Part shown: positions 46,004 to 63,527 of the stretch, piece by piece
Position numbering within the stretch: position 1 is the first letter of the stretch
Layout: each line of letters opens with the position of its first letter
From: Verrucomicrobiota bacterium
GTDB taxonomy: Bacteria > Verrucomicrobiota > Verrucomicrobiia > Chthoniobacterales > Chthoniobacteraceae
Direction of reading: 5' to 3'
Assembly: GCA_009885995.1 (NCBI GenBank)
Contig: VFJQ01000050.1
Span: forward strand, 8,088-72,087
Length of the DNA stretch: 64,000 nucleotides
Made by a program: the position numbers and the translations under genes
The notes under the pieces: generated by a model
What the model was told of the DNA's origin: nothing
Seen by the model: the letters and a program-made list of their open reading frames with translations, nothing else
Database searches by the model: none

Positions 46004-46102
46004 TCGGCGCCGACTGTAGCGGACCGCGGGCTTTGCACAAAGCCTGCCGTCGCCGATGATCGCAGGGTCGTGCTTCCCGCCGAAAAACCCGATTTCAAAG
46101 CC

Positions 46103-47614
46103 ATGCTCCGTGACGTGCCGCACAAGCCCGGCGTGTATCTGCATCGCGACCGCTTCCAGCGCGTGATCTACGTCGGCAAAGCGCGCGACCTCCGCAAGCG
46201 GCTCAGCCAATACTTCACGCCGTCTCGGGCGATGCGCGCCGACCTCAAGACGCAGGCGCTGCTCGACGCGATCTGGGATTTCGAGTGGCACACCGCGCCG
46301 AGCGAACCCGAGGCGCTGCTGCTCGAAGGCCGGCTCATCAAGGAATTCCGCCCGCGCTACAACATCAGCTTCCGCGACGATAAACGCTTCCTGCTCGTGA
46401 AGGTCGATCTGCGCGACGAGTGGCCGCGCTTCCGCCTCACGCGCTACAAGACCGACGACAGCGCCCGCTACTTCGGCCCGTTCGCGCACTCCGGCGCGCT
46501 GCGGCAGACGCTCACTTTCATGCGGAAAAAGTTCGGCGTGCTCACCTTCGGCCGCGGCAACCCGACCGAGCGCGAACGCAAGTCCTCGACGTATCAGGTG
46601 CCGATGAAGCTCGGCGACATCGACGCCGCGCAATACCGCGAGCGCGTCGAGCGCGCGTGCGTGTTTTTTGAAGGTCAGTCGAAGGAGCTGCTCACCGCGC
46701 TCGAGGACGAGATGAAGGCCGCCGCCACGAAGCTCGACTTCGAGCGCGCCGCCGAGCTGCGCAACATGCTCAACGACCTGCGCACCACGACGAAGCCGAT
46801 GGCCCGCTACACGCGCGAGCAAGGCCGCCGCCTGCGCACGCACAGCGCCATCGATCCCACCGCCGATCTCGCCGAACTCGCCGAAACGCTCGGCCTCGGC
46901 GCGCCGCCACGGCGGATGGAGTGCTTCGACATTTCCAACATCAGCACGACGCACATCGTCGCGAGCATGGTGTGCTTCCTCGACGGCCGGCCCGCCAACC
47001 AGCTCTACCGCCGCTACCGCATCAAGACCGTCGAAGGTCAGGACGACTTCGCAAGCATGGCGGAAGTCGTGCGGCGGCGTTACGCACGCGTGCTGCGCGA
47101 AGGCGCTGCTGCATTTGCCGATGCGGCGGAGTTTTCGCAGGAGAACTCCGGTGACGCGATGGCGCGACTCTCCGGCCAATTGCCGGACCTCATCATCGTC
47201 GATGGCGGCAAGGGCCAGCTCAGCGCAGCGTGCGCGGAGCTGCAGCGGCTCGGCTTGCACGAGCAGCCGATCATCGGCCTCGCGAAGGAGTTCGAGGAAA
47301 TATACCGCCCGGCGCGCCCGATCCCGCTGCGCCTGCCACATGACAGCGGCGCACTGAAGCTGCTCCAGCGCATCCGCGACGAAGCGCACCGCTTTGCGAA
47401 CGGCTACCACCAATTGCTGATGAAACGCCGCATCGCCGAGAGTGTGCTCGACGATTGCCCCGGCATCTCGCAGGCGCGGAGGAATCTGCTGCTCCAGCGC
47501 TTCGGCAGCGTCGCGCGCCTGCGCCGCGCGAGCGTGGAGCAGATCGCCGCGATCGAAGGCATCAGCCGCAAGCTGGCCGAGACGCTCGTGCAGTTCCTCA
47601 CGGAGAAGCGCTAG
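46103..47614 (+). CDS. uvrC: Excinuclease ABC subunit C
   Basis: GIY-YIG is PGVYLHRDRFQRVIYVGKARDLRKRLSQYF. The UVR motif is FERAAELRNMLNDL. The endonuclease domain is RMECFDISNISTTHIVASMV...DLIIVDGGKGQL. The C-terminal (HhH)2 is GISQARRNLLLQRFGSVARL...IEGISRKLAE. ATG at 46103; an in-frame GTG at 46070 is an alternative start. Confidence 0.92.
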   Translation: MLRDVPHKPGVYLHRDRFQRVIYVGKARDLRKRLSQYFTPSRAMRADLKTQALLDAIWDFEWHTAPSEPEALLLEGRLIKEFRPRYNISFRDDKRFLLVKVDLRDEWPRFRLTRYKTDDSARYFGPFAHSGALRQTLTFMRKKFGVLTFGRGNPTERERKSSTYQVPMKLGDIDAAQYRERVERACVFFEGQSKELLTALEDEMKAAATKLDFERAAELRNMLNDLRTTTKPMARYTREQGRRLRTHSAIDPTADLAELAETLGLGAPPRRMECFDISNISTTHIVASMVCFLDGRPANQLYRRYRIKTVEGQDDFASMAEVVRRRYARVLREGAAAFADAAEFSQENSGDAMARLSGQLPDLIIVDGGKGQLSAACAELQRLGLHEQPIIGLAKEFEEIYRPARPIPLRLPHDSGALKLLQRIRDEAHRFANGYHQLLMKRRIAESVLDDCPGISQARRNLLLQRFGSVARLRRASVEQIAAIEGISRKLAETLVQFLTEKR

Positions 47615-49080
47615 GCGCTCGCAGCGAGAGCAGGCGCCGCTTTCGGCACGGGCGCGGACGGTTTCCGCCCGATGACGACGGTCGAGAGACCGCTCGTCGG
47701 GAGCACTTTGTCGAGCACGCGGAAGATCGGCGTGAGGGCGTTATAGACCTTGAGTTGCCACGGTTTGAGCACGCCCTGACCGCCGAGCGTGTTCGCCACA
47801 TACCACGCGAAGACGCCGACTTTGTTGAAGTAGAACTGCTCGGCTACCTCGAGGCCGGCGTCGCGCATCTTGCCTTCGAGTTCGCCGCGCGAGTAGCGGC
47901 GGAAGTGGCCGAGCGCTTTGTCGAACTCGCTGTAGAGCGCCATGTTGTAAGGCACGAGCACGATGATGCGGCAGCCTTCCGGCACCGTGCGGCAGAGGTT
48001 CGCGAGCACGGCGCGATCGTCTTCGATGTGCTCGAGCACGTTGAGGAAGACGACGCTTTCCGGCGCGAAGCGGCGGAGTTGCTCGAAGTCGGTGCCGGCG
48101 GTCATGTCGAGCTTGCCGATCTCAAGGTGCGGATGGTGGTTCCATTTCGCGCGCAGCTCCTCGAGGTAGTCCGTGCGGTAATCGGTGAGCAGGACGTGCT
48201 GATGCTCCTTGATAAAGCGGCTGATATTTCCGCGACCAACGCCGAGCTCCGCGACGCGCGCGCCGATCCACGGCTTCACGCTTTCATACATCCACTTGTT
48301 GAACTTCGGCGCGCACTCGAGCGCATCGAGCGTGACCTTGCCGGGGTCGCTGTAGTTCGAGCTGAAGCGATACTTGAAAATGAACCACAGCGCGGCGAGG
48401 CCGTCCTTCCACGTAATCTTCTTGCCCTCGTCGTAGCTGCGGCCGTCGTAGTTGATCGGCACCTCGAACATGCGCAGCCGGTTGCGCGCGACCTTCGCGG
48501 TGATCTCGGGCTCGATGCCGAAGCGGTTGCTTTCGAGCGGGATCGCGCGCAGGCAGTCGGCGCGGAAGGCCTTGTAGCAGGTCTCCATGTCGGTCCAGTT
48601 CGTGTCGTTGAGCATGTTGCTCAGCAGCGTGAGAAATTGGTTCGCGAGCGTGTGCCAGAAGAAGAGGACCTTGCGGATGTCGCCGGCGAAGCGGCTACCG
48701 AAGACGACGTCGGCGCGTCCGTCGATGATCGGCGCGAGCAGGCGCGGGTAGTCGTTCGGGTCGTATTCGAGATCGGCGTCCTGGAAGATCGCGAGGTCGC
48801 CGGTGGATTCCTTGATCGCGCGGCGCAGCGCGGCGCCTTTGCCTTGGTTGGGGTTTTGCTGGAAGACGCGGACGATGCCCTCGTTCTCTTGCTCGAGCTG
48901 CTGCATCACCTCCCAAGTGCGATCGCGCGAGCCGTCATCGACGATGACCACCTCGCGAGAGAGGCCCGCGGGGAGCGGAGCGGCGAGCACGCCGTCGAGG
49001 CAGTGACGCAGGCTCGCCTCTTCGTTGTAGGCGGCGATCAGGATGCTGAGTTTGGTGAATGCGGGTTTGGCCAACGGCAT
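47611..49080 (-). CDS. Family-2 glycosyltransferase (DPM1/ArnC-like polyprenyl-phosphate glycosyltransferase) fused to a class I SAM methyltransferase domain
   Basis: The GT2 half is LSILIAAYNEE, VIVDDGSRDRT, NQGKGAAL, the DxD in FQDADLEYDP, and FGSRF. The C-terminal half has the SAM motif VAELGVGRGN and VVFLNVLEHIEDD. Confidence 0.88.
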   Translation of the reverse strand: MPLAKPAFTKLSILIAAYNEEASLRHCLDGVLAAPLPAGLSREVVIVDDGSRDRTWEVMQQLEQENEGIVRVFQQNPNQGKGAALRRAIKESTGDLAIFQDADLEYDPNDYPRLLAPIIDGRADVVFGSRFAGDIRKVLFFWHTLANQFLTLLSNMLNDTNWTDMETCYKAFRADCLRAIPLESNRFGIEPEITAKVARNRLRMFEVPINYDGRSYDEGKKITWKDGLAALWFIFKYRFSSNYSDPGKVTLDALECAPKFNKWMYESVKPWIGARVAELGVGRGNISRFIKEHQHVLLTDYRTDYLEELRAKWNHHPHLEIGKLDMTAGTDFEQLRRFAPESVVFLNVLEHIEDDRAVLANLCRTVPEGCRIIVLVPYNMALYSEFDKALGHFRRYSRGELEGKMRDAGLEVAEQFYFNKVGVFAWYVANTLGGQGVLKPWQLKVYNALTPIFRVLDKVLPTSGLSTVVIGRKPSAPVPKAAPALAASA

Positions 49081-49119
49081 GGCAGTCGAAAATTGGCTGA
49101 GGTCAGCGGCGGGCGCGAA

Positions 49120-51860: not shown

Positions 51861-51912
51861 CGGCGGTTTCTTCGTCGCAAAATGCGCGCGCGAAGCAAGA
51901 GCCGATCGCGCG

Positions 51913-53841
51913 TCAGGGCTCACCCGGTTCCCAGAGGTCGTCGCCGGGCTCATCCGCGATGGGATGCGAGTCAGCGGTCTCTTCGTCGTCCGCTCGGAAA
52001 CGGTAAATCGCAATGTCCTGGAGACCGGTGGGAGCGACCTCGCGATCGCCGAGCGCGTAAGCCTTGAAGTAAAGCTTCTCGGCGCGGATAAGGCGGTGGC
52101 GCAAGTAGTAGTGATGGCCGAAGAAGGCGTAAACGGTGGCGAGGTTTGGGTCCGCCTGGACGGCGACGCGATAAACGTATTCGGCCTCGTTGAAGCGCTG
52201 AAGGTTGTCCAGTGTGCGGCCGAGCTTGAGCAAGAGGTTGAGATCGCCCGGGAAATGTTTCACCCCCTCGGCAAACGCCTGCGCTGCTTCGATATGCAGC
52301 TTGTTACGGGTGGCCGGATTCGTGTCAGCCATGGCGAGGATGTGTTTCGCTTCGCCGAGGTAGTAGTAGAGGTTCGGGTTGGCTGGATCGCGGCGGATCG
52401 CCCGTTCCGCATAGCGGATCGCGTCCGCAGGCATGCGGTCGCGCAAGGCCATACGAGCGCGCTCGGCGCAGTATTCCGGGAGAATTCTCGGCACAGCGAT
52501 GCAGATCAAGATCGCACCGAGGAGCGCCGGAGCGAGGCGGAGTGGGAGGCTGTGAATCCGCCAGCGCACTAGCTCTTCAGGAGGCGGCGTTCGGGGATTG
52601 GCGAGAATCCCAAACAAGCAAGCGGCTAGCATGGCGTTGGCCGGGATGTGGAGGTTGAAGTCGATCACCGAATGCACGGAGATCGCCGCAAAGCCGGAGA
52701 GCACTCCAACCACGACCGCGAGTTCATTGCTACGCGCCAGACCGAAGGGTCTCAGCCGACTTCGGATGATTCCGCCGATCGCCGCAAAACCCGACACGGC
52801 ATGCGTCGCGAGAAAGATCGCCATGATTGCACAGCCGGCGATGCCGTATTCGGTCAGTAATTCGAGATAGTCGTTGTGAACATGCTGCGGGTCAGATTGC
52901 ACCTCTTTGTTCCGGAAATGCCGGCCGTAAAACAGATAGGTTCCAGCCCCCACGCCCGTCCAAGGGCTCAGCTTGTGCGCATCGAGCGCGGCCTCCCACA
53001 TCTGGAGCCGCATGTTCTTGGGATCGTTGATCTCCCCGAGGCGACGATCGAGATCGGGGCTCTTGCGCATTACCCAAACGGAAGAACCGATCAACCCCGC
53101 GCATCCAAAGATCGCGAGCAAGAGCGCGCTCCAGAACCAGCGGCGCTTTACACGACGGATAATAAACAGAGAGAGCACGCCAAAGGTCATCACGCCGGCG
53201 ACCGTGCTAAGATAACCACCACGGCTGCCGGTGATCGCCACACCCACGAGCGCCATCAATGCGATGTAGCCGACGATGATTCGAGCCCATGTCTTGCCGC
53301 GGCCCCAAATCGCGAGACTCAGCGCGAGCAATCCCGATAGTTCCAGCAGTCCGGCGAGATGGTTCGGACAGATGTAAAAGCCGCTCGCTCGGTAGCCGTA
53401 TTCCGACCGGAGAATCCATGGAAGCAGCATGAAGTTTTGCTTCTCCTTGAACTGCACAACTCCTACGCCCACGTGGAGCAAGACCATCCCGAACAGAACC
53501 CAAAATAACGCAAGCCTGTGCCTCGGATTGACCAAATGCACGGCCGTGATGAGATAAATGAGCAATGCGCCGATGATGACGTAGAAATCCGTCCGAGCCA
53601 GATAGTCCACCGGCGAGGTTGCCGCCCGCCAACCAATGTAACCGGCTAGCAGTAGAGATGTGACTAGACACCAAGCAATGGGTTTGGCGGTCACCGGTCT
53701 CCTCCACCATCCGAGCGTCACGATACCTGCAAGCCCGAGTATCGTGTAAGCCGGCAGGCTGTAAACCATCTTCACCCCCCCGATGAGGAGTTGCATGGCC
53801 GCTACACTCAAGCCGAGGAGGACGACAAGTAGCGTGCTCAC
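51913..53841 (-). CDS. O-antigen-ligase-like (Wzy_C) polytopic membrane protein with a C-terminal TPR domain (paralogue A)
   Basis: GTG start at 53841 (MSTLLVVLLGLSVAAMQLLIGG). Wzy_C hallmarks are GVAITGSRGGYLS and SDPQHVHNDYLELLTEYGIAG. The TPR-like C-terminus is AIRYAERAIRRDPANPNLYYYLGEA...FNEAEYVYRVAVQADPN. It is colinear with the 58277..60211 protein. Confidence 0.88.
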   Translation of the reverse strand: MSTLLVVLLGLSVAAMQLLIGGVKMVYSLPAYTILGLAGIVTLGWWRRPVTAKPIAWCLVTSLLLAGYIGWRAATSPVDYLARTDFYVIIGALLIYLITAVHLVNPRHRLALFWVLFGMVLLHVGVGVVQFKEKQNFMLLPWILRSEYGYRASGFYICPNHLAGLLELSGLLALSLAIWGRGKTWARIIVGYIALMALVGVAITGSRGGYLSTVAGVMTFGVLSLFIIRRVKRRWFWSALLLAIFGCAGLIGSSVWVMRKSPDLDRRLGEINDPKNMRLQMWEAALDAHKLSPWTGVGAGTYLFYGRHFRNKEVQSDPQHVHNDYLELLTEYGIAGCAIMAIFLATHAVSGFAAIGGIIRSRLRPFGLARSNELAVVVGVLSGFAAISVHSVIDFNLHIPANAMLAACLFGILANPRTPPPEELVRWRIHSLPLRLAPALLGAILICIAVPRILPEYCAERARMALRDRMPADAIRYAERAIRRDPANPNLYYYLGEAKHILAMADTNPATRNKLHIEAAQAFAEGVKHFPGDLNLLLKLGRTLDNLQRFNEAEYVYRVAVQADPNLATVYAFFGHHYYLRHRLIRAEKLYFKAYALGDREVAPTGLQDIAIYRFRADDEETADSHPIADEPGDDLWEPGEP

Positions 53842-53928
53842 CGAACCTGCGGGATGAGGTGGGATGTTCGCGTTTCGCTGAGTGTCTGCACGGTCAGACT
53901 AAAGGTGTGACTCGAGCGGTCGCAGGGC

Positions 53929-53964
53929 AAAAAAAACGCCCCTGCGACCACAGCCGCAGGGGCG
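53929..53964 (-). terminator. Rho-independent terminator after the 1331-aa gene (minus strand)
   Basis: On the minus strand CGCCCCTGCG - GCTGTGG - TCGCAGGGGCG is followed by T8 (the plus-strand A8 at 53929-53936). It lies 20 nt after the stop at 53984. Confidence 0.8.
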
Positions 53965-53983
53965 CTTAGTCAATCGTCCGTTG

Positions 53984-56900
53984 CTACAGCCCGAAGATGT
54001 CGGTCACCGGAGCGCCAGTAAGTGTATGATGAGCAAAATTGACCACGCCCGCAGCACCAGCAGCAGGCACATTGTTGGTCGCCGCAAGCACGCCGAAGTG
54101 AACAGCATTCGCAACCTTTGTATCAAGTTGGTAGTAAGGATTAGGACTCCCGTTGGAGAGGAGGGGATTGAGCACGGATTCCGGATGGGAAGGAGAAGTG
54201 ATGGCGAACGGAATTCCACCGATTTTCTTAATGAAGGCATTCAGAATCGCCAAGACGACATCTTTTTCACCGTCACCATTTGCCGGCGCAGTCCCAAATA
54301 CCTGACCGGGACCAGTGCTTGAGAATCCGGATGCGACTCCACGTGCCGCTTGAGCAGCCGCTTGCGCGATCGCCAGAACCTTGGATACATCGGACTTCAC
54401 GACGAGGATAGCCGCACCGATCACCTGCCCCACCATGCCAAGGTCGCCGCTCGAATAACCCGGATAGGGAAGTCTCGTATCCGCCGGAGCGATCACTTGA
54501 CTCATGAAGCCCGTGATGACCGCGGCGGGCCCGATTTGTTTGCCCAAGGTCGAACCACTAGTCGTAAGCACTGGACCACTAACTGCCGGCGCATTTCCAT
54601 CGGATTGAAGGAAATTGTTGGGGCCTTCGCCGCCACCGACGATAGAGTCACCTCCCGCCGCAGCCGTTGACAGGTTTGCGTGCGTCCCGGGGAGCCATTG
54701 ACTGATGACAGGGCTATTACCCGTAAGCGTAAGCGTCTGCTTAACGAGCGCGGTGATCGCGTTCTTCAGATTCGTGATCTCGATTGTCGGCTCCGTAGCG
54801 GTGGCACCGCCGGTAACATACCCCGTCTTCGCCTCAATGATCCCCGCGGTGATGGCCGCTGTGACTGCCGCAGCAGCATCCACTGGGTTGTCGTATTCTG
54901 CCTCCAAGGGCGCGGTGACCAGCGGATCCGTCCGCGTGATGTGTGCGTAGTTGAAGAGCATCGGCACTGCTTTTGCGACCGTTGATGCGGAGGAAAATGC
55001 CGCAGCATGGCCGATGATACCAGCGTAGTTCGGTGCGACTACCGTGGCTGCCGTAACGATGTCCGTGAGATACTTCGAATTTTGGAAAATTTTGACGTTC
55101 AGGTAATCAAACAGATCTGCGGTTCCAGCTGCCACATGACTTGCCGTCGAAACAGCGAGTTTGATGTTTGTGGCCAAGCTTGGATTGAGACCAATTGCCT
55201 CGGTCTGGAACAGAGCCGCATCAACCGCTCGGAACTTTACGGCCAAGGCCGCTGCAAGGGGAGCTTCCTTCGAGTTTGCCAAGCCCACACCGACCAACAC
55301 TGCCTTGGAGAGTGTCTGATTGGCACCGACTGTCGGATCGGAGAAGGCATCGAATGCTTTCGCGAAGACAGCTTTTGGATAGTCTTGAATGTTCTTAATG
55401 ACATTACCACCCTTGGTGATCGCATCATCATTGTCCCCACTGTTATCGTAATCCGTCACATTCGTGGCAAATGATGGAATCAGCGCGTTGAGCGTTTGGA
55501 AGTTTCCGATGGGTTTTCCGGTTCCCACGTCTACTCCGTAGGTTCCGTCGAATTCCAGTGTGGTTGAAAGCTTCTTTACGGCCATAACCCCTAGCACGGC
55601 GCGCCACTGTTCACTGTCCGGAAGGACGCCGCCGCCTGCTACCGCCGCTGTGTCAATCGCCCCTTCAAGGATTGGTTGGTAAAATTGATAGAAACTTGAT
55701 GCGGATTCGGCGAGATTGAACGCTACACCCGCAGCAGCAGTGGGATGCCCGGCCGTCAGCGCACCGGAGATTGCGTAGCTCGTAATTTCCTTCATTTGTG
55801 TCCGCCCATCAGCGTTGTATTCGGTGAGCGTAATCTTGGTCTTCAACAACGGTTCCATTGGGTTGTTGTCCTTGTTGGTGATCACAGTTGTGACTTTGGT
55901 CAACGGGGCAGCTGCCATCACTTTACCAACGACGGTATTGAGCATCGCGTTGTAGAGCGGCTGACCTTTCAGACCCAATGCTGCACCCTCTGTGATTTTT
56001 CCATACCGCTGTGTTTCAAGCGTGCCTGTGCTCGTTGCTGTTTTGGCCCAAACTGCCGCAAGGTTCGCAATAGTGGCGGCAGTTGTTGCGCTCCCGCGCA
56101 CAGCATTTTCCACGATTTCGCTTACTGTATCGTTACTGGATAGATCCGCATCAAGCTGCAGCACATCAGCGATGAAGGATCCCTTCGCGAAGGTCACGAA
56201 GACACTCGACTTGGCAACAAGCACGGCCGGCAGCCAGGCGGCGGCACCGGTGATGCGCGCCGCGATCTCGTTCGGGGCTCCTGCCATCCCAGCCAAGACT
56301 GACTGGCCTACCGAATCTCCCTTTGTAGGAAGCGTCGCACTGTAAGCGGACACAAACCCGAATTGGACGTTGTCCAGATACGTTTTGTCAGACGGACTCA
56401 AGGAGAGCGTCGTGTTCATCTGCTCGACGATATTCTCCTCTGGCTTATCGGGGTCGACGACGAGATAAGCCGGATCACTGCCACCTTCGAATTTTGAGGC
56501 TTTAAAGCCCTTCATTAGACCTGCAGCAATCAACGCCCTCTCTTTCAGGTCTGTGGGAGCGCTGACATCTGAGAAGACAGCTGCGGCAATTTCGTAACTG
56601 AGGGCAATTGGCTGCTTGAGCAGACTGCTGGGCTTGTGCGTGAATGAGGTCGCAATAATCTTTGCTCCGACTGCAGCCGCTACCTCGTCTGCAAGATACC
56701 CATTCAAGTAAGTATAGGCACTGTTGATTCCAACAGCCGCCACATCTTTCGCATGCTGTTTTGCCGTAGCCAGCGTGCCATTCGTGGCGGGTGAAGATGC
56801 CAATGAAATGTCGACTCCTTGCATCACCACGCCGATTGCGGCCTCGACGATTGCAACTGCATTCTCGGAGGCCTTCTCCATGGCTTTCCGCAGGATTTCA

Positions 56901-57979
56901 TCCGCGGCACCGTCAAACCCTGGCGTCGCGTTCCAGTTCGCTGCTCCCGCGAGATTCAGATTTACCGGTTTGAACGCAATCACGAAGTCATCTTGAAACG
57001 CTGCGACAGTATTGGCCGAATCGATGGCCGCCGTGAACTGGCCGTAGTTGAAAAGCCCGGTCAAATTCAATGCATTCTGGAGAGCCAGCGCGGAAGCGCC
57101 AGTCGGGATCAACGCGTTGGTTGAACCGAAATACACTCGAACACCGCCAGGTTCATTTGCGGTCGTTACTCCACCCTTGCTTAGCACGCCCGGCAAAGCA
57201 TTGAGTGCCGTTGCCACATTCGCGGCAGTCAAGGTTGTGGAGGGCGTGCGAGTAAGCTGTGGTGTTCCAAGCAGCACCGGCAATGACGGTGTAGAACCCT
57301 TAACCTTCGGCACAACAAGCGGGAGCATCGTTCCAACGACGCCAGCCGCGGCAGCCGGGTCGGCTTCACAAGCTGCTGCAGCTAGTGCCTCAAGCGCAGC
57401 CGTCTGGCTCCCGCCGGGAAAGGCGCCCGTCCAATTGAGAATGTTGATCGTCGCCGTCTTAACAAATGACTCGATGGTCTTCTTCCTGTAACTGGCGACG
57501 GATTTGACCAGATCGGACAGTGTGACGGCGCTGTATGCGGGCGGAACTGTGCCATCTAGCAATTTCTGAACTGCGGAGCCGAGGGCAAGATCGAGTTCTA
57601 TGTCGCTCGCGAGGATGTAATGCTCCGCCGCTGGCGAGAAGTCGATCTTATTATCATCACCGGGCAACGGAGGAAGGCTCGGAAGGGTCTGTGAATCCGG
57701 AATGTAAAGTGACGGGACATACACATCATAAGTCGTCGCCCCGGGAATGGGCGATATTGTCGATGTGTCTTTGATTTTTCGATACTGCTCGTGCAGGAGC
57801 GACTCGATAAACTCAAGTGCATCGTTGCCGTTTACCGGCGCATCGGCGCTTGGGTAGTAATTATTACCCGGACCGACAGGTCCAATCTGGGCCGTGACAG
57901 GTCGAGGCGCCAGGCACAATGCGAGAGCAGCGGCGAGGAGGGAATTGCGCGGCGAGAATGCGTGACGCAGGTTGTTCAT
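53984..57979 (-). CDS. Large (1331 aa) secreted orphan protein, Ala/Thr/Gly/Ser/Val-rich, with no domain I recognise
   Basis: ATG at 57979 gives the signal peptide MNNLRHAFSPRNSLLAAALALCLAPRPVTAQ. The frame is long and uninterrupted, with lower GC than its surroundings. It has its own terminator and a 297-bp upstream region. Confidence 0.8.
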   Translation of the reverse strand: MNNLRHAFSPRNSLLAAALALCLAPRPVTAQIGPVGPGNNYYPSADAPVNGNDALEFIESLLHEQYRKIKDTSTISPIPGATTYDVYVPSLYIPDSQTLPSLPPLPGDDNKIDFSPAAEHYILASDIELDLALGSAVQKLLDGTVPPAYSAVTLSDLVKSVASYRKKTIESFVKTATINILNWTGAFPGGSQTAALEALAAAACEADPAAAAGVVGTMLPLVVPKVKGSTPSLPVLLGTPQLTRTPSTTLTAANVATALNALPGVLSKGGVTTANEPGGVRVYFGSTNALIPTGASALALQNALNLTGLFNYGQFTAAIDSANTVAAFQDDFVIAFKPVNLNLAGAANWNATPGFDGAADEILRKAMEKASENAVAIVEAAIGVVMQGVDISLASSPATNGTLATAKQHAKDVAAVGINSAYTYLNGYLADEVAAAVGAKIIATSFTHKPSSLLKQPIALSYEIAAAVFSDVSAPTDLKERALIAAGLMKGFKASKFEGGSDPAYLVVDPDKPEENIVEQMNTTLSLSPSDKTYLDNVQFGFVSAYSATLPTKGDSVGQSVLAGMAGAPNEIAARITGAAAWLPAVLVAKSSVFVTFAKGSFIADVLQLDADLSSNDTVSEIVENAVRGSATTAATIANLAAVWAKTATSTGTLETQRYGKITEGAALGLKGQPLYNAMLNTVVGKVMAAAPLTKVTTVITNKDNNPMEPLLKTKITLTEYNADGRTQMKEITSYAISGALTAGHPTAAAGVAFNLAESASSFYQFYQPILEGAIDTAAVAGGGVLPDSEQWRAVLGVMAVKKLSTTLEFDGTYGVDVGTGKPIGNFQTLNALIPSFATNVTDYDNSGDNDDAITKGGNVIKNIQDYPKAVFAKAFDAFSDPTVGANQTLSKAVLVGVGLANSKEAPLAAALAVKFRAVDAALFQTEAIGLNPSLATNIKLAVSTASHVAAGTADLFDYLNVKIFQNSKYLTDIVTAATVVAPNYAGIIGHAAAFSSASTVAKAVPMLFNYAHITRTDPLVTAPLEAEYDNPVDAAAAVTAAITAGIIEAKTGYVTGGATATEPTIEITNLKNAITALVKQTLTLTGNSPVISQWLPGTHANLSTAAAGGDSIVGGGEGPNNFLQSDGNAPAVSGPVLTTSGSTLGKQIGPAAVITGFMSQVIAPADTRLPYPGYSSGDLGMVGQVIGAAILVVKSDVSKVLAIAQAAAQAARGVASGFSSTGPGQVFGTAPANGDGEKDVVLAILNAFIKKIGGIPFAITSPSHPESVLNPLLSNGSPNPYYQLDTKVANAVHFGVLAATNNVPAAGAAGVVNFAHHTLTGAPVTDIFGL

Positions 57980-58276
57980 AGGGTGCAAGCAGTTAGAGTT
58001 GTCTTTGAGGGTTCTTGCTCGGCAGGAGCGTCTTGGGGGAAACAAGAAACTTCCAGTGCCGCGCGCTGAAGGTGGCAACGAGAGCAGCTCTGTCAACGAA
58101 ATCTTCTCACTTTTTCAAGGCGATTTTGGCCCCCGGCGGGTCCATTGCTTCCCGGAATTTTGCGGCTCGTTCTCAATGTTCAGTGATTTACGAACACCCA
58201 TCGCAGCGAGTGCGGCTCCAACGCGGTGATCATCGCGGTTGTCACTGGGGTTTCATCTGCCTAGCGTGCACCCGCT

Positions 58277-60211
58277 TTGAACGCACTCCTCACCGGCTTG
58301 CTGGCCGCCAGTATCGTCCTCATCCAGTGCCTCACGGGCGGCACGCGGCTCGTCTTTGCGCTCCCGGCGTATGGGCTGATTGCACTCGCGGCGCTGCTCA
58401 GCGCGGGATCGTTTCGGCGGGGATCTGCTCAGCCCAGCGGTTCGTGCCTCATCGTGACCGCTGTATTTTTCGCCTACATCCTCGCGCGAGCAGCGCTCTC
58501 TCCATGGGATTACTTGTGGTGGCAGGACTTCCACCAAGTGCTCGCCTGCCTGATGATTTACGGACTCTACGCGTGCTACGCCCAGGCTCCGGCACCTCGG
58601 CTGTGGCTCTTCGGCGTGCTGCTCATCCTTGCGGCGGCCGAGTTTTTTATCGGGCTCCGACAATTTCGTTACGGCGACAATTGGATGCCCTTTGGTTTCA
58701 TCCGTGCCGACAGTGGCTTGCGCGCGAGTGGCACGCTGATCAGTTCGATTCACTACGGCGGCTTCCTTGAGGCACTCGGCGCATTTGCGCTCGCATTGAC
58801 TTGCTGGAGCCGCTGGCCCGGCTGGATCCGCTTCCTCTCCGGTTATGCCGCCCTGCTGTGCTACAGCGGTGTGGCCATCAGCGGAAGCCGCGGCGCCTAC
58901 GTCAGCACACTCGTCGGCCTCGCGGTATTCGCTGCGCTTAGTCTGATGGCGGTTCACCGCACGCGCCCCGAGCGGTTGCGGCGGGTCATCAGCATCGGCG
59001 CGATCATCGGTGGCATCGTGATCATTGGCGGTGTCGCACTGATGCTGCGCAGCCCGCTACTGCAGCAGCGCCTTGCCGCCCTCGCTCAGCAAGACATTCG
59101 GATCATGTCGCTACTGCTCTCCGATGGCACTCGCGAAGGTGCGATCAAACCCAGCACCGATGTGCGCATCTACAACTGGCAAGCTGCGCTCGACCATTTC
59201 CGTGTCTCGCCCGTCTTCGGCACCGGAGCAGGCACGCACCTCTACTACGGACGGTTGTTTCGCCGGCCACAAATCCAGTCCGACCCGATCCATGCGCACA
59301 GCGACTACCTCGAATTGCTCGCCGAATACGGAATCGTCGGCGCACTCGGGATGGCCGCATTCCTCGTCGTCCACCTGCGTCACGGGCTGCGGCGCTTCTC
59401 GCAGATCCTCTCCACCGAGCTCGGCGACCTCGACCCCTACCAACCCGCCCGCAGCGACGACCTTGCCCTCGTCATCGGCGCGCTCAGCGCCGTCGCCGCC
59501 TACCTCGCGCACTCGGTGGTCGATTTCAATCTCCACATCCCCGGCAACGCCCTCACCTTCGCCGTCGTCTTCGCCATCCTCGCCAGCCCGCGGGCCGACG
59601 CTGCGCCCTCGACCACTCGCTCGGAAACCATATGGCGCCTTGCTTTGCCGGCGCTCGGCATCTGGATGACCATCGCCATCGCGCGCACTTTTCCCGGCGA
59701 ATATTGGTGCGAAAAGGCCCGCGTTGCGTTGCGTAACCACCGCCTAACCGCGGCGATCGAACTCGCGCAGCACGCTCTCCGACTCGATCAGCGCAATCCC
59801 GAACTGTGGTTCCACCTTGGCGAAGCGCAGCGCGCCCTCGGTCTCGCAGCCCCATTGCCCCCGGAGCGGCGCAGCCGGTTCACCGACGCCGTCGCCGCCT
59901 ACGACCGCTCACTTGCGATCTTCCCGCTCGACGAGCACGTCCTAGTGCGTCGTTCGCAGGCGCTCGACGAGCTGAGTCGCTTCGCCGAGGCCAAAGCCGG
60001 CTACCGCAAGGCCATCGAGCACGACCCAAACTTGGGCGTCCTCCACGCCTACTACGCTCAGCACCTCTTCCGCGTCGGGCGCCACGAGGAAGCCCATGCC
60101 GAGTTTGCCGAAGCCCGGCGGCTCGGCAGCCAAGACCTCCGAACCATCGTCGATCAATCGTTCATCGATGCCCCCGTTGAGCCCGCCCTACCGGAAGCAT
60201 CACCTCAATAA
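58277..60211 (+). CDS. O-antigen-ligase-like (Wzy_C) polytopic membrane protein with a C-terminal TPR domain (paralogue B)
   Basis: The TTG start at 58277 is supported by gap-free N-terminal alignment to paralogue A (MNALLTGLLAASIVLIQCLTGGTRLVFALPAY against MSTLLVVLLGLSVAAMQLLIGGVKMVYSLPAY). Motifs are GVAISGSRGAYVS, SDPIHAHSDYLELLAEYGIVG and HSVVDFNLHIPGNAL. The TPR-like tail is AIELAQHALRLDQRNPELWFHLGEA...FAEAKAGYRKAIEHDPN. Confidence 0.88.
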   Translation: MNALLTGLLAASIVLIQCLTGGTRLVFALPAYGLIALAALLSAGSFRRGSAQPSGSCLIVTAVFFAYILARAALSPWDYLWWQDFHQVLACLMIYGLYACYAQAPAPRLWLFGVLLILAAAEFFIGLRQFRYGDNWMPFGFIRADSGLRASGTLISSIHYGGFLEALGAFALALTCWSRWPGWIRFLSGYAALLCYSGVAISGSRGAYVSTLVGLAVFAALSLMAVHRTRPERLRRVISIGAIIGGIVIIGGVALMLRSPLLQQRLAALAQQDIRIMSLLLSDGTREGAIKPSTDVRIYNWQAALDHFRVSPVFGTGAGTHLYYGRLFRRPQIQSDPIHAHSDYLELLAEYGIVGALGMAAFLVVHLRHGLRRFSQILSTELGDLDPYQPARSDDLALVIGALSAVAAYLAHSVVDFNLHIPGNALTFAVVFAILASPRADAAPSTTRSETIWRLALPALGIWMTIAIARTFPGEYWCEKARVALRNHRLTAAIELAQHALRLDQRNPELWFHLGEAQRALGLAAPLPPERRSRFTDAVAAYDRSLAIFPLDEHVLVRRSQALDELSRFAEAKAGYRKAIEHDPNLGVLHAYYAQHLFRVGRHEEAHAEFAEARRLGSQDLRTIVDQSFIDAPVEPALPEASPQ

Positions 60212-60310
60212 AGTTTTCATAAAAACCACTTGCCGCCGGTTGGTGAAGATCGCAATTTCGACGCGCAGAACCAGAACACCAAACACTAACCCTCTCTGCA
60301 ATTTGAAGTC

Positions 60311-62032
60311 ATGAATACGCTCACCCTTCGCAAATTCGCCCTGATCCTCGGCGTGGCATTCGCCAGCCACCTCGCAACTCCCGAAGCCCACGCGGGCAAC
60401 AGCGAAATCATCGCGATCGGAAACAAGCTTGGCACCACGCTTGTTGGCACCACATCTGAAAAGGTCGCCGCAGCGAGGGCTCGAATCCAAGCGGCCACCG
60501 ACACCGCACTCAGCACAGCGGTGCGGCAGGCCTATGTTGATACAGCCAACAGCAAGCTCAGTCCCGCCGTCATCGCCGGCGAAGCGCTGAAGGGGGCGGT
60601 CACTGCCACCAATATCGGCACTCAGTTGGCGACCGATCTCCTCCTCGACCTCGCCAATCCAACGCTTGCCACTGTGGGTCTTTACCCGAAAATCACCGCA
60701 AACGTGCAGAAATTTGTCGGCACCTCGTCGAAAACCGCCGCCACCAGCACCGGGGCCAATCCAGCGCAGATCCCGACCTATGCCGCGGGTTTCATCGCAC
60801 GGGCTGGCATTGATGTGATTAATCGAAACGCGGAAGCGATCGCGATCGCGAGTTTCGCCTCCGGTTCCCCGACTGCGATCGGTGCCATTATCGGCGGCCG
60901 CACGCTGAATGGAGACGCAGAGGTGACTGGCGACGTTAAGCTGGTCGGCTTGGCCAACCAAGCAATCAACTCCAAAAAGCTCACCAGTTCAGCCCAGCAG
61001 ATTGCTCAATATGTCGGTGACGCGGCTACACTCGCTCCGCAGTTCACAGTGGCTCTTCTCATCTCAACGAACTCAGCGAACTCCGCCAACACCAGATTCA
61101 CGACGAAGATCGCCACTGGCGTCACCACCTCCAACCCCACGGTCGCCTCCGAGATTCTCAGCGCCATGTTCCAGAATGACAACACGTCAGGCACTGTGTT
61201 CCTCGCCACCGTCAAGAACGTATCCACGCTTGCAAAGAACCTCGGCCTCGTCTCCGATGCCGAAGAGGTCAGTCAAGTCGCCGCAGAGTTCGGCGCTCGC
61301 GTCGGTATGTTGAACCCCTCGACCGGAAAAGTGGTCGGCATCGCCCAGTCCAAGATCAACACCATCGCCAAGGGCCTTGTCGCCGGCCTCGCCACGCGCG
61401 CTACCGGCACCGGCATCGACAATCTTCTGCGAAACTCCCGCACCAACCGCATCGACGAAATCGGCGAAGTGGGGGCCTACCTGTTCAACGCCATCAAAGC
61501 GCTTCCCGTCTTCGCGAACACCTCCACCAAGTCCAGCATCAAGCAGGCACCATCAATCATCACCGGGTTGATCAAGACCATCATCAGCGCCTCGTTGAAG
61601 GTCCACCGCGACATCGCGTCCGTCCCCCCGACCAGCGCCAAGGCGACCACCACGAAGGACGGCCTCTTTCAGGCAACCGTGGCCGACGACGTGGCGGGCA
61701 GCGTCGCCCAGACCATCCGCGTCCTCGGACCCACCGCATTCGGTGCCGCTGGCCCCGGTCTTGTGAGCATCTACGACGCGATCCTCGCTGCGCTCACCAA
61801 ACCCACGGCCGGAACGTCAATCGCGGGCAAGAGCAAGACCACCTACGATATCGATCAGAGCGGCCCTCTTCCGGCGATGACGATTTCTCAACTCGTGCAG
61901 ACTGCGTTGGCAAGCGGCCTCAATGACACCAACAACGCCTCGATCATCTACGAGGACGGCACGCAGCCCCTCCTCGCGCAAGGCCCGGTCGGCCTGATCA
62001 CCGAACCGGAGACGGACATCCGCAGCCGCTAA
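60311..62032 (+). CDS. Secreted orphan protein (573 aa), Ala/Thr/Ser/Gly/Ile-rich and Cys- and Trp-free; possibly distantly related to the 1331-aa protein
   Basis: ATG at 60311 gives the signal peptide MNTLTLRKFALILGVAFASHLATPEAHA. It follows Wzy_C-TPR paralogue B by 99 nt on the same strand and ends at a strong terminator. Confidence 0.8.
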   Translation: MNTLTLRKFALILGVAFASHLATPEAHAGNSEIIAIGNKLGTTLVGTTSEKVAAARARIQAATDTALSTAVRQAYVDTANSKLSPAVIAGEALKGAVTATNIGTQLATDLLLDLANPTLATVGLYPKITANVQKFVGTSSKTAATSTGANPAQIPTYAAGFIARAGIDVINRNAEAIAIASFASGSPTAIGAIIGGRTLNGDAEVTGDVKLVGLANQAINSKKLTSSAQQIAQYVGDAATLAPQFTVALLISTNSANSANTRFTTKIATGVTTSNPTVASEILSAMFQNDNTSGTVFLATVKNVSTLAKNLGLVSDAEEVSQVAAEFGARVGMLNPSTGKVVGIAQSKINTIAKGLVAGLATRATGTGIDNLLRNSRTNRIDEIGEVGAYLFNAIKALPVFANTSTKSSIKQAPSIITGLIKTIISASLKVHRDIASVPPTSAKATTTKDGLFQATVADDVAGSVAQTIRVLGPTAFGAAGPGLVSIYDAILAALTKPTAGTSIAGKSKTTYDIDQSGPLPAMTISQLVQTALASGLNDTNNASIIYEDGTQPLLAQGPVGLITEPETDIRSR

Positions 62033-62063
62033 GGCTCAGTCCTCAGCCAGTCCAAATTCAAAG

Positions 62064-62095
62064 AGAGCCAGACTTCGGTCTGGCTCTTTTTTTTT
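62064..62095 (+). terminator. Rho-independent terminator after the 573-aa gene
   Basis: AGAGCCAGAC (62064-62073), loop TTCG, GTCTGGCTCT (62078-62087), then a T run to 62095. It lies between convergent genes. Confidence 0.88.
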
Positions 62096-62100
62096 GAGGG

Positions 62101-62763: not shown

Positions 62764-62804
62764 ATTCCGGCTCTAGCTCTGCCCCCGCCGCTTTGCAAAG
62801 CGGT

Positions 62805-63491: not shown

Positions 63492-63527
63492 GGTCGGGAA
63501 AGGTGCGCCCACTTTCCCGCAATCCGG

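Follow-up and report, generated by a model that had tools for sequence, protein, structure and literature searches.

The window analysed here is a stretch of 64,000 nt from a Verrucomicrobiota bacterium (contig VFJQ01000050.1). It contains a divergent gene cluster with two membrane enzymes of the Wzy_C-TPR type, each encoded next to a large secreted protein (Table 1). All seven genes listed in a previous sequence-only reading were found as open reading frames with the coordinates and strands given there, and the domain assignments were upheld by Pfam, less firmly so for the SAM-methyltransferase part of the GT2 protein. Both terminators noted earlier were also located. The hairpin directly 3' of the gene for the 1331-aa protein (fam1331) has a 15-bp stem with 10 GC pairs, while the one downstream of the gene for the 573-aa protein (fam573) is shared with a convergent gene for a 220-aa protein. 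A strong terminator placed after a structural gene and before an enzyme gene is what would be expected for an abundant structural protein and a low-level enzyme. The GC3 value of the fam1331 gene is 0.59, compared to 0.84-0.88 in neighbouring genes. In the divergent intergenic region neither a consensus promoter nor an Rfam match was found; the same divergent layout of fam1331 and Wzy_C-TPR B exists at loci L001, L002, L003, L005, L010, L011, L016 and L024. The full seven-gene layout occurs mainly in Chthoniobacteraceae-like contigs. The genes at 62101..64000 are kept in close relatives only (synteny with L001, L002 and L016) and are at most candidate members of the locus. Lipid A-core (waa) genes were not found near it.

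Table 1. Features of the locus, with positions in the window.
Feature	Position	Strand	Basis
489-aa fusion of a GT2 (polyprenyl-phosphate sugar synthase type) with a SAM methyltransferase domain	47611..49080	-	Pfam
GT-C glycosyltransferase, PMT_2/ArnT-like, 549 aa	49120..50769	-	Pfam PMT_2
EEP, membrane-anchored endonuclease/exonuclease/phosphatase-fold protein, 363 aa	50769..51860	-	Pfam Exo_endo_phos
Wzy_C-TPR paralogue A, 642 aa	51913..53841	-	Pfam Wzy_C + TPR
TPR domain of A, aa ~455-600	52042..52479	-	Pfam TPR, hydropathy
Wzy_C catalytic region of A, aa 194-339	52825..53262	-	Pfam span, motif alignment
Intrinsic-terminator-like hairpin between fam1331 gene and Wzy_C-TPR A	53934..53967	-	15-bp stem, T run
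fam1331 gene, 1331-aa secreted protein	53984..57979	-	ORF
fam1331 C-terminal tag P-V-T-D-I-F-G-L-COOH (Pro -8, Thr -6)	53987..54010	-	Family alignment
Divergent intergenic region, fam1331 gene / Wzy_C-TPR B	57980..58276		Sequence
Wzy_C-TPR paralogue B, 644 aa	58277..60211	+	Pfam Wzy_C + TPR
Wzy_C catalytic region of B, aa 191-358; R205, R297, H339/H341	58847..59350	+	Pfam, alignment
TPR domain of B, aa ~475-617	59699..60127	+	Pfam TPR, hydropathy
fam573 gene, 573-aa secreted protein	60311..62032	+	ORF
fam573 C-terminal tag P-E-T-D-I-R-S-R-COOH (Pro -8, Thr -6)	62006..62029	+	Family alignment
Terminator hairpin 3' of 573-aa gene	62064..62096	+	10-bp stem + T9
Acidic 220-aa protein	62101-62763	-	Synteny with close relatives
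LolA-like protein	62805-63512	-	LolA_like, 59.4 bits
PAP2 phosphatase start, cut by window end	~63528-64000	+	tblastn to L002 PAP2, 79% identity

The two secreted proteins carry Sec-type signal peptides, as read from the sequence, and are rich in Ala and Thr (A16 T9 S7 % in the 1331-aa protein, A16 T12 S8 % in the 573-aa protein); neither of them has a match in Pfam or NCBIfam. The AF2 model of fam1331 residues 132-1331 (pLDDT 74.6) is mostly helical and corresponds to an alpha-solenoid with small beta inserts, in which the last 27 residues fall below 50. For fam573 (pLDDT 87.5, pTM 0.87) an ARM/HEAT-like alpha-solenoid was obtained with residues 557-570 below 50, and thus the C-terminal tails of both proteins are disordered in otherwise confident models. 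Fold searches returned weak matches only, in the case of fam1331 to HEAT/ARM proteins. Homologues of fam1331 form 10 clusters only, and fam573 has 126 representatives among 1.84 billion proteins.

Overall homology between fam1331 and fam573 was not detectable (BLASTP E about 1; hhalign probability 1.2%). Their alignments revealed that both families end in a tail with P(-8)-x-T(-6) in identical register. The tail GxP[VIM]T[DNASH][ILY]xx[LFY] is present in 13/13 complete fam1331 tails, including those of distant relatives of 843-956 aa, and all 13 have Thr at position -6. The consensus tail of fam573 is [VIL]xDPETDxR[NP]x-COOH, with exactly four residues after T-D in 98/111 proteins. Among 113 in-register tails of this family, position -6 is occupied by Thr in 112 and by Ser in one; a few out-of-register tails read PESD. 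Members of the tagged families span 230 to 1400 aa while the tail is unchanged. Thr(-6) is the best-conserved residue in both families and is replaced by Ser alone, which matches the expectation for an O-glycosylation acceptor. What is new here is that two solenoid families without detectable homology have a common tail with Pro(-8) and Thr(-6) in fixed register.

The paralogous enzymes A and B share 39% identity over 604 aa (E 7e-124), and their Wzy_C scores of 79.4 and 69.7 bits, respectively, clearly exceed the threshold. The exact 644-aa product of B is present in the protein collection; the exact 642-aa product of A is absent from it, and the start codon of A is uncertain. With B as query, 661 homologues were retrieved at E<=1e-30, and all those with an organism name are from Verrucomicrobiota. 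In the databases these enzymes are annotated as 'O-antigen ligase family protein', and the Wzy_C domain is indeed also that of O-antigen ligases and polymerases, activities which are indistinguishable by sequence. The exosortase-associated ligase family named in the sequence-only reading was not matched, as the model TIGR03097 scored 14.8 bits where 188 are required. The catalytic region of paralogue A includes GSRG with R207, R278, and H320-x-H322-N-D-Y-L-E-L-L in the large periplasmic loop. These key residues are invariant or near-invariant across 21 orthologues, with R207, D317, H320, H322 and E327 being invariant. In an alignment with WaaL (PDB 7TPG) the motifs coincide with SRG, VRLxxW and EHAHND, and the catalytic positions matched are R215/R288/H338 in WaaL and R224/R298/H349 in PglL (PMC3643930). 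Hydropathy indicates a 13th transmembrane helix before the TPR domain (aa ~436-454 in A, aa ~451-469 in B). With the 12-TM topology of WaaL and this one extra helix, the TPR domain would be periplasmic. The TPR profile of B matches OGT, PEX5 and TOM70-type TPRs. Few TPR residues are lineage-specific, namely one (R586 in A, E605 in B), which makes a TPR-based discrimination between the two tails tentative; most residues that set A and B apart sit in the Wzy_C core, in its periplasmic loops.

A lack of co-occurrence of the two kinds of genes outside this genome had been named beforehand as refuting the pairing, but our census did find them together. Of 18 distinct genomic contexts with a fam573 relative, 17 have a WzyB-type Wzy_C-TPR gene at a distance of two genes or less, and all named ones are from Verrucomicrobiota. 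The exception is a fam573 paralogue (L013), around which the contig, extending 10 kb upstream and 2.7 kb downstream, shows no gene of the Wzy_C-TPR type. In all nine contexts with the downstream flank present, a WzyA-type gene follows fam1331 (directly so in L001, L002, L003, L005, L010, L011, L016 and L024), and cross-pairing of WzyA with fam573 or of WzyB with fam1331 does not occur in the census. The pairing survives a change of the other neighbours (L006, L014, L024, L026, L028, L030), and the stand-alone pairs L006 and L026 have no other neighbours in common. The arrangement thus recurs in other genomes and metagenomes far beyond chance, at an orphan-protein identity down to about 26-37%, and this supports the view that the Wzy_C-TPR enzyme and its orphan protein form a conserved functional unit across Verrucomicrobiota. 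At L003 and L005 the cassette abuts genes for a Wza-type exporter, a predicted beta-barrel, a Wzc-like kinase, GT4, GT2 and an extra Wzy_C protein. A secreted protein of ~255 aa with a weak carbohydrate-binding match recurs at many loci.

The remaining three genes of the locus encode a less constant module. The EEP protein matches Exo_endo_phos (56.5 bits at aa 123-346) and has 3-4 hydrophobic segments ahead of this domain. Its gene lies directly upstream of the PMT_2 gene also in L001, L002, L003, L010, L011, L016 and L030, the last of which has a B-type pair only. The overlap of the EEP stop with the GT-C start reported earlier was seen (cTGATGc) and suggests that the two genes are translationally coupled. 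The GT-C protein (PMT_2, 40.1 bits) has no sequence match in the PDB. In the GT2-methyltransferase protein the GT2 domain is clear (Glycos_transf_2, 120.7 bits) and its DPM1/ArnC-like nature was borne out by the best PDB matches (DPMS 2.3e-19, ArnC about 1e-14, GtrB 2.6e-10). The methyltransferase region is weaker, with Methyltransf_12 at 28.4 bits, just under the 30-bit cutoff, and Methyltransf_23 also just under its own. This gene accompanies the double cassette in L001, L002 and L024 as well; in L024, GT-C and EEP are absent within the 14 kb seen. The pairs L006, L014, L026 and L028, of which L006 and L026 stand alone, have no GT2, GT-C and EEP genes nearby. Wzy_C ligases use undecaprenyl-PP-linked glycans as donors, while a DPM1-like GT2 makes polyprenyl-P-monosaccharides for GT-C enzymes. 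Since the donor types differ and pairs without the module exist, the proposal of one shared sugar-donor supply line is doubtful, and the three genes are better seen as a separate, optional accessory branch.

It had also been remarked that no characterised system with such an architecture is known. This was too strong, since TfpO/TfpM, TfpW and WsfB are partial precedents. As at our locus, the genes of the Wzy_C-family enzymes TfpO (PilO) and TfpM in Pseudomonas, Acinetobacter and Moraxella directly adjoin that of a single cognate substrate, whose C-terminal tail with a Ser/Thr acceptor is recognised; Thr and Ser are interchangeable and Ala is not, T167S being glycosylated by TfpM and T167A not (PMC9829042; PMC3643930). 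Homologues of pglL were found beside or near pilin substrates in 21/31 cases (PMC3643930). However, TfpO and TfpM are enzymes of 420-470 aa without TPR, and their substrates are type IV pilins with the acceptor as the very last residue, whereas here the enzymes have an extra helix and a TPR domain, the putative substrates are Sec-exported alpha-solenoids of 230-1400 aa with the candidate acceptor at -6, and two paralogous pairs stand side by side, in Verrucomicrobiota. TfpW, which acts on group IV pilins of Pseudomonas aeruginosa, is likewise a polytopic glycosyltransferase of the membrane whose C-terminal part is a large TPR domain in the periplasm, and its gene is immediately downstream of the substrate gene pilA (bioRxiv 10.1101/2020.04.19.049825). 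In contrast to our enzymes it is a GT-C protein (ArnT/Emb-like) without Wzy_C, uses polyprenyl-P-arabinofuranose and modifies an internal Ser/Thr of the pilin. The S-layer slg clusters of Paenibacillus alvei and Geobacillus stearothermophilus also include the gene of a structural surface protein, together with a Wzy_C O-oligosaccharyltransferase with C-terminal TPR motifs (WsfB; such motifs are also found in PglL) or with a separate TPR protein (WsaA, alongside WsaB), and in G. stearothermophilus a glycosyltransferase-methyltransferase fusion, WsaE (PMC2943079). They differ in serving Gram-positive S-layer proteins, for which no conserved C-terminal tag is reported.

At the level of single proteins, the only solved structure that the Wzy_C-TPR sequences detect is that of WaaL from Cupriavidus metallidurans (7TPG; E 1e-6). 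WaaL has the above motifs and the 12-helix core in common with them, but it has no 13th helix and no TPR, lacks a secreted partner protein and uses lipid A-core as acceptor. The GT2 and GT-C proteins resemble the pairs DPM1/Ppm1-PMT, ArnC-ArnT and GtrB-GtrC, from which they differ by the methyltransferase fusion and the lack of the usual C-terminal TM helices in GT2, and by the apparent coupling of GT-C to a membrane EEP phosphoesterase, for which we know of no characterised counterpart.

Based on these observations, we propose that two protein O-oligosaccharyltransferases are encoded here, each together with its own dedicated substrate, a reading to which we give somewhat better than an even chance. 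The proposal of two enzyme-substrate pairs was already made in the sequence-only reading; the conserved pairing and the common disordered tail with a near-invariant Thr speak for it, while its common donor line is not retained. According to this model, Sec would export fam1331 and fam573, which would fold into alpha-solenoids and leave the last ~15-27 residues flexible, with the family-specific tag at the free C-terminus; their final location is itself a deduced part of the model. The TPR domain, brought into the periplasm by the 13th helix following the WaaL-like core, would grip the tail via its free end, enzyme A probably serving the hydrophobic GxPVTDIFGL tail and enzyme B the charged DPETDxRxx tail. 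The Arg/His catalytic loop would then transfer a glycan carried on undecaprenyl pyrophosphate en bloc to the hydroxyl of Thr(-6), and further Ser/Thr residues may be targets, too. The donor glycan would be synthesised elsewhere; in some genomes a Wza/Wzc/GT cluster adjoins the cassette. The EEP, GT-C and GT2-methyltransferase proteins may constitute an optional second branch making a polyprenyl-P-(methyl)sugar, which would be added to the glycan or the protein at the periplasmic face. The terminal acceptor of the TfpO/TfpM substrates, as opposed to position -6, would by analogy argue against Thr(-6) as acceptor, and the tail could also be a mere docking signal or a signal for some other purpose.

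Such a docking role is central to an explanation that we consider unlikely, though worth keeping in mind, in which the solenoids are partners instead of substrates. The Wzy_C-TPR proteins would then be polysaccharide ligases or polymerases, and the solenoids would serve in the periplasm as scaffolds, rulers of chain length or adaptors for export, docking with their tails on the TPR, similarly to the TPR scaffolds of synthase-dependent polysaccharide export, with Thr needed for binding and not modified. TPR domains are known as periplasmic polysaccharide-export scaffolds (PMC9601211), the export and GT genes at L003 and L005 and the recurrent ~255-aa protein are in line with it, and a spread from 230 to 1400 aa with a constant tail is what adaptors or rulers might show. 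On the other hand, a top-conserved hydroxyl amino acid with Ser as sole substitute is more acceptor-like than a binding contact, there are no polysaccharide genes near the stand-alone pairs L006 and L026, and two paralogous polymerases, each with a private scaffold, would be less economical than two enzyme-substrate pairs. Alternatively, the PMT-like GT-C of the same operon could glycosylate the proteins with the help of the GT2-methyltransferase, like actinobacterial Ppm1/Pmt, which O-mannosylate secreted proteins rich in Ala and Thr. The Wzy_C-TPR enzymes would then act downstream, for instance by elongating the sugar on the protein or joining it to a polymer, or be unrelated. The confirmed PMT_2 and DPM1-like domains, the Ala/Thr/Ser-rich composition of both Sec substrates and the recurrence of the EEP-GT-C module, even next to a B-type pair alone, are compatible with this. 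We nevertheless regard it as improbable, because the module is missing near L006, L014, L026 and L028 and L024 has no GT-C and EEP, so that it is the Wzy_C-TPR enzyme, not GT-C, that is the invariant companion of the tagged proteins; moreover, we know of no equivalent of the tag or its fixed register among PMT substrates.

The tail could also be a sorting or anchoring signal, by which the C-terminal region of the protein becomes covalently linked with a glycolipid, LPS or a polymer, with a sortase- or PorU-like outcome, possible removal of the last residues and the Wzy_C-TPR enzyme providing recognition or the glycan acceptor. Indeed, P-x-T-[DN] resembles the core P-x-T-G of sortase signals, the strict distance from the C-terminus would fit a processing or recognition site, and genes for an EEP phosphoesterase and a LolA-like protein lie close by. 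However, in contrast to every sortase, exosortase and rhombosortase signal known to us, the motif is not followed by a transmembrane segment or basic tail, and the locus has no conserved gene for a peptidase or transpeptidase; the signal peptidase S26 gene of L001 is not conserved. Together with the unmatched TIGR03097 model and the chemistry of Wzy_C, which is glycosyl transfer from Und-PP and does not cut peptides, this makes anchoring very improbable. Finally, the database annotation and the concentration of the complete layout in Chthoniobacteraceae-like contigs would suit ordinary LPS/EPS genes (WaaL or Wzy) that, within a narrow clade, simply inherited their position beside genes for two hypothetical proteins unrelated to them. 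After the census this explanation is disfavoured and hardly credible: adjacency is kept despite wholly different neighbours and low orphan identity, pairing is strict from lineage to lineage, waa genes are absent nearby, and drift leaves the tail register common to two families without detectable sequence homology unexplained.

All seven genes listed in the sequence-only reading are present as it described them, and every one of its domain assignments was upheld by Pfam (see the table below); the further NCBIfam matches of the window proteins were all sub-threshold and consistent with Pfam. The stop codon of the gene for the EEP-fold (endonuclease/exonuclease/phosphatase-fold) protein overlaps the start codon of the GT-C gene in the sequence TGATG. 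The proposed terminators were also recovered, as a 15-bp stem 3' of the 1331-aa gene and a hairpin followed by T9 3' of the 573-aa gene. No hits came from scanning the window for Rfam families and tRNAs, and a promoter scan of the window stayed at background level. The exact GTG-started, 642-aa product of WzyA is absent from a collection of 15 billion proteins, in which the other six products are present; probably, the public gene call uses another start codon.

Genes of the cassette in the window, and positions of a recurrent secreted protein in related loci of other genomes or metagenomes (L numbers)
Feature	Position	Strand	Basis
1331-aa secreted protein	57979->53984	minus	ORF
Wzy_C-TPR paralogue A (WzyA)	53841->51913	minus	ORF + Pfam
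Membrane-anchored EEP-fold protein	51860->50769	minus	ORF + Pfam
PMT_2-type GT-C	50769->49120	minus	ORF + Pfam
GT2-methyltransferase fusion	49080->47611	minus	ORF + Pfam
Wzy_C-TPR paralogue B (WzyB)	58277->60211	plus	ORF + Pfam
573-aa secreted protein	60311->62032	plus	ORF
~255-290-aa secreted protein	L003 12495-13265	minus	
~255-290-aa secreted protein	L005 12099-12863	minus	
~255-290-aa secreted protein	L014 1906-2670	minus	
~255-290-aa secreted protein	L028 6367-7155	minus	
~255-290-aa secreted protein	L030 14145-15017	minus	
~255-290-aa secreted protein	L017, L020, L023		

The G+C content is 64-69% in the window (about 0.66) and goes down to 55-60% over the cassette (52000-62000). GC3 is 0.59 in the 1331-aa gene, 0.72 in WzyA, 0.78 in WzyB and 0.76 in the 573-aa gene, as against 0.84-0.88 in the genes flanking the cassette. 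This atypical composition could reflect horizontal acquisition or the special codon usage of highly expressed genes.

The families of the two orphan secreted proteins, fam1331 and fam573, are small, with 10 and 23 clusters, respectively, at 90% identity, and a profile search with fam573 returned 126 representatives among 1.84 billion proteins. In all fetched contexts, the ORFs were classified with phmmer and hmmsearch by their similarity to the seven proteins of the window and to the profiles of the two families. A metagenome scan with a narrower alignment gave nine loci and a genome scan six, the census base being about 18 distinct contexts and not hundreds. The co-occurrence of the orphan proteins with Wzy_C-TPR enzymes outside this genome, on which the sequence-only reading had staked its enzyme-substrate pairs, is borne out: a WzyB-type gene lies at most two genes from the fam573 gene in 17 of the 18 distinct contexts with usable flank. 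Only L013 departs from this; it is a second fam573 paralogue, and the complete locus lies on another contig (L010) of the same metagenome-assembled genome. Similarly, a WzyA-type gene directly follows every fam1331 gene for which the downstream flank is present, and cross-pairing between the two enzyme lineages, whose members in the window share 39% identity over 604 residues, was never seen in the contexts of the census. The named sources of the related loci are all Verrucomicrobiota.

The surroundings of the pairs vary. L006 and L026 contain stand-alone pairs of WzyB followed by fam573 and share no other gene, L024 has the double cassette and the GT2-methyltransferase gene without EEP or GT-C, and in L030, from a genome assembled into a single contig of 7.83 Mb (Verrucomicrobiota bacterium sgz303538, GCA_054456655.1, with the locus at about 1.66-1.68 Mb of CM136900.1), the order is WzyB, fam573, p256, EEP and PMT_2. 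Since the pairing is kept where all else differs, inherited synteny alone is insufficient as an explanation. Enzyme-substrate pairing can be regarded as well founded on comparative grounds, with a concrete mechanism that can be tested, and this part of the earlier proposal is supported, but a shared donor line and a lack of precedent, which it also claimed, do not (see below). Upstream of the intact gene, apparently degenerate or fragmentary fam573-like copies are found in L005 (9273-9818, minus strand) and L003 (8369-9877, minus strand); one is a 181-aa ORF ending in ...KETDTKNG and one a 502-aa ORF with an apparently frame-disrupted C-terminal half.

Both enzymes belong to the Wzy_C superfamily (PF04932), scoring 79.4 bits (WzyA) and 69.7 bits (WzyB) against a cutoff of 31.7. 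In 21 orthologues from both lineages R207 (in GSRG), H320 and H322 (numbering of WzyA) are invariant, R278 is kept in at least 90%, and D317, E327, E331, D394 and H398 are also invariant or nearly so, the His motif being HxHxDYLELL. A whole-protein profile search was swamped by TPR matches, while an N-terminal profile found WaaL (7TPG, E 1e-6) as the sole solved relative, and its SRG, VRLxxW and EHAHND motifs align with the conserved residues. These residues correspond to the Arg/Arg/His catalytic set of WaaL and PglL, which comprises R215, R288 and H338 in E. coli WaaL and R224, R298 and H349 in Nm PglL (PMC3643930). Enzymes of the superfamily have about 12 TM helices, the last three of which are preceded by a large periplasmic loop. 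A crude hydropathy scan suggested a WaaL-like series of some 12 segments, a loop of 66-81 residues that contains the His motif, a 13th segment and then the TPR domain. The C-terminus of WaaL is cytoplasmic; given this and the one extra helix, the TPR domain is presumably periplasmic. A sub-threshold Slam-like TPR match (E 0.0046) was treated as generic TPR similarity.

The 1331-aa and 573-aa proteins have no match in Pfam or NCBIfam, including any pilin family. Both are Ala/Thr-rich and carry SPase I-type (Sec) signal peptides, as read from their sequences. The AF2 model of the 573-aa protein (pLDDT 87.5, pTM 0.87) is an all-alpha, ARM/HEAT-like solenoid with disorder confined to the signal peptide and residues 557-570. 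For the 1331-aa protein, residues 132-1331 were modelled with moderate confidence (pLDDT 74.6), giving an alpha-solenoid over most of the length, interrupted by small beta inserts, and a disordered stretch of 27 residues at the C-terminal end. Foldseek searches of the PDB with both models returned generic HEAT/ARM solenoids only (E>1e-3, TM 0.1-0.3) and no specific relative. BLASTP and hhalign detected no homology between fam1331 and fam573; we do not claim them as one family, only fold class and tail register being common.

The extreme C-terminus is the most conserved stretch of fam573 and reads ...YEDG(T/N)-x8-12-[VIL]xDPETDxR[NP]x-COOH, with exactly four residues after T-D in 98 of 111 proteins. 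Counted from the free C-terminus in 113 in-register tails, position -8 is Pro in 92, -7 Glu in 106, -6 Thr in 112 (Ser in one), -5 Asp in 103 and -3 Arg in 97; a few out-of-register tails have PESD. In fam1331 and its distant relatives of 843-956 aa, all 13 complete tails end in GxP[VIM]T[DNASH][ILY]xx[LFY]-COOH. The two families, between which no sequence homology is detectable, therefore have in common a signal peptide, an alpha-solenoid body and a disordered tail with Pro(-8) and Thr(-6). Tail type follows enzyme lineage, the charged tail always occurring with B and the hydrophobic tail always with A. The TPR domains of Hop and PEX5 are readers of free C-termini, and such a reader would be expected to keep its tag at a constant distance from the carboxyl terminus; the profile of the Wzy_C-TPR enzymes matches PEX5-, TOM70- and OGT-type TPRs. 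Discrimination of the tails by the TPR domain only is unsupported, since a single lineage-specific position lies in this domain (R586 in A, E605 in B) and nine lie in the Wzy_C core. The Glu of B at this position goes together with substrates that have a conserved Arg at tail position -3, and a charge-pairing contact between E605 and Arg(-3) is possible.

In the main rival explanation, the solenoids would serve polysaccharide enzymes as docking partners or scaffolds and would not be their substrates. Under the preferred reading as cognate substrates, a hydroxyl residue with Ser as sole substitute is what O-glycosylation would predict for the acceptor, and TfpM was shown by experiment to behave in just this way (PMC9829042). 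The chemistry of the proposed system we infer throughout. A sortase-type signal was rejected because the tails have no transmembrane anchor. Membership in the family of exosortase A-associated putative O-glycosylation ligases (TIGR03097) was likewise rejected: the cutoff of this model is 188.1 bits, WzyB reaches 14.8 and WzyA does not match at all. The partners in PEP-CTERM systems carry a motif, a TM helix and a basic tail, but the tails here stop four residues after T-D and lack a transmembrane segment.

Membership in the TfpO, TfpM or PglL families was also rejected, since tested defining features are lacking, and the enzymes are probably not members of the WaaL family either. With TfpO and TfpM the present system shares the position of the enzyme gene beside that of its cognate partner, and there the C-terminal Ser/Thr of the adjacent pilin is glycosylated (PMC9829042). 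However, their substrates are type IV pilin-like, whereas the candidate substrates here are alpha-solenoids with SPase I-type signal peptides. Further, TfpO and TfpM are defined by a C-terminal Ser/Thr as acceptor and by an enzyme of 420-470 aa without extra domain (PMC9829042, Table 2), in contrast to a conserved Thr at -6 followed by variable terminal residues and to enzymes of 600-710 aa including the TPR. WaaL acts on lipid A-core and is usually a single gene in an LPS core/O-antigen context; here there are two neighbouring paralogues, both linked to a secreted protein of their own, and no waa genes occur in the window. A Pfam scan of both enzymes at E<=0.01 gave only Wzy_C and TPR families and no PglL_A or PglL_B motif, the PglL_A model being, as we assume, part of Pfam-A. 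These motifs flank Wzy_C in PglL-type enzymes (Schulz et al. 2013) and are absent from TfpO (PMC3643930).

The claim that no characterised system has this architecture did not survive, each element having a precedent. Apart from TfpO and TfpM, there is TfpW, a GT-C that has a periplasmic TPR and whose gene directly follows pilA (bioRxiv 10.1101/2020.04.19.049825); 21 of 31 pglL homologues are encoded near or next to substrate genes (PMC3643930), and WsfB and PglL have C-terminal TPR motifs, with S-layer genes adjoining slg clusters (PMC2943079). The GT2-methyltransferase fusion of the window also has a precedent in WsaE, a fusion of this kind in S-layer glycan synthesis (PMC2943079). What would be new is how these elements are combined: the substrates would be alpha-solenoids and not pilins, the conserved C-terminal tag has its candidate acceptor at -6, the enzymes are obligatorily fused to a TPR domain, and there are two paralogous pairs, each with the tail type that matches its enzyme. 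The phylum would be new as well.

Regarding the accessory genes, matches to Glycos_transf_2 (120.7 bits) and PMT_2 (40.1 bits) place a DPM1/ArnC/GtrB-type GT2 and a GT-C in one operon. The GT2 has sub-threshold NCBIfam matches to AglJ (4e-31) and ArnC (1e-17), and a PDB sequence search with its domain found dolichol-P-mannose synthase (DPMS, 5MLZ, 2.3e-19) as well as ArnC and GtrB, while the same search with the GT-C and the EEP-fold protein found nothing. Based on its resemblance to these enzymes, the most likely product of the GT2 is a polyprenyl-P-monosaccharide that the PMT_2 GT-C would use. The donors of Wzy_C enzymes are Und-PP-glycans, a distinct class. Coupling of EEP and GT-C recurs in seven loci, and the GT2, GT-C and EEP genes are missing at several pairs. 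Since the donor class differs and the module can be missing, it would represent an optional second branch and not the single sugar-donor line proposed for both ligases.

Between the fam573 and Wzy_C-TPR genes of many related loci a third component recurs, a secreted protein of about 255-290 aa with a weak, sub-threshold match to the carbohydrate-binding CBM_4_9 (E 0.04); the window is without it. In L003 (1-8200) and L005 (1-8800) the cassette is abutted by a Wzx/Wzy-type polysaccharide cluster with a Wza-like Poly_export protein, a Wzc-like ATPase, GT4, GT2, a TPR-less Wzy_C and a 534-556-aa, outer-membrane beta-barrel-like protein ending in ...SWAFD or ...SWLFE. The donor glycan might be made by this cluster.

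As far as literature searches reached, we found no protein glycosylation system described in Verrucomicrobiota. Four Wzy_C families of O-oligosaccharyltransferases are known (PglL, PglS, TfpO and TfpM), and to our knowledge each of them includes pilins among its native substrates. If our interpretation is true, there would be a further class, with substrates other than pilins, a TPR reader built into the enzyme and a short, transplantable C-terminal tag, and such tags are what bioconjugate-vaccine engineering seeks. It would offer a testable role for at least 661 clusters annotated as 'O-antigen ligase family' and a role for two orphan families, which may be main constituents of the cell envelope in bacteria that are abundant in soil and freshwater. 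In addition, the side-by-side paralogous pairs would allow the encoding of enzyme-substrate specificity to be studied as a natural experiment.

A bolder reading, which we consider rather unlikely, is that the DPETDxRxx and PVTDIFGL tails are a new class of C-terminal sorting tags and the Wzy_C-TPR enzymes 'glyco-sortases'. With the free C-terminus read by the TPR, a long polymer carried on undecaprenyl-PP would be attached to Thr(-6) by the ligase, yielding a protein-capped exopolysaccharide or proteoglycan-like surface coat exported via the adjacent Wza/beta-barrel machinery. In Verrucomicrobiota, the protein would then anchor or prime a layer of polysaccharide and not merely be a decorated glycoprotein, and the tag of 8-10 residues would be a portable sequon for glycoengineering.

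Downstream of the cassette (62101-64000) are genes for a very acidic, cytoplasmic-looking 220-aa protein, a LolA-like protein (PF17131) and a PAP2 phosphatase, which are syntenic in the closest relatives (L001, L002 and L016); in L001 and L002 a second PMT-type GT-C also follows the 573-aa gene. The presence of PAP2 and PMT beside a ligase expected to release Und-PP may not be a coincidence. On the other side, a Ser/Thr protein kinase gene adjoins the cassette in the window (43535-47413, minus strand) and in L014 (4935-7436, minus strand), which have no other neighbours in common. The window kinase has PEGA repeats and an FGE-sulfatase domain, and its TTG-started ORF is certainly over-extended at the 5' end; such kinases being common in the phylum, its position is probably a coincidence. 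Finally, a 3841-aa ORF of the window (21933-33458, plus strand) encodes a giant, autotransporter-like surface protein in which seven or more passenger-associated transport repeats (PATR) occur; L026 and L030 also have PATR giants of this kind beside the cassette.
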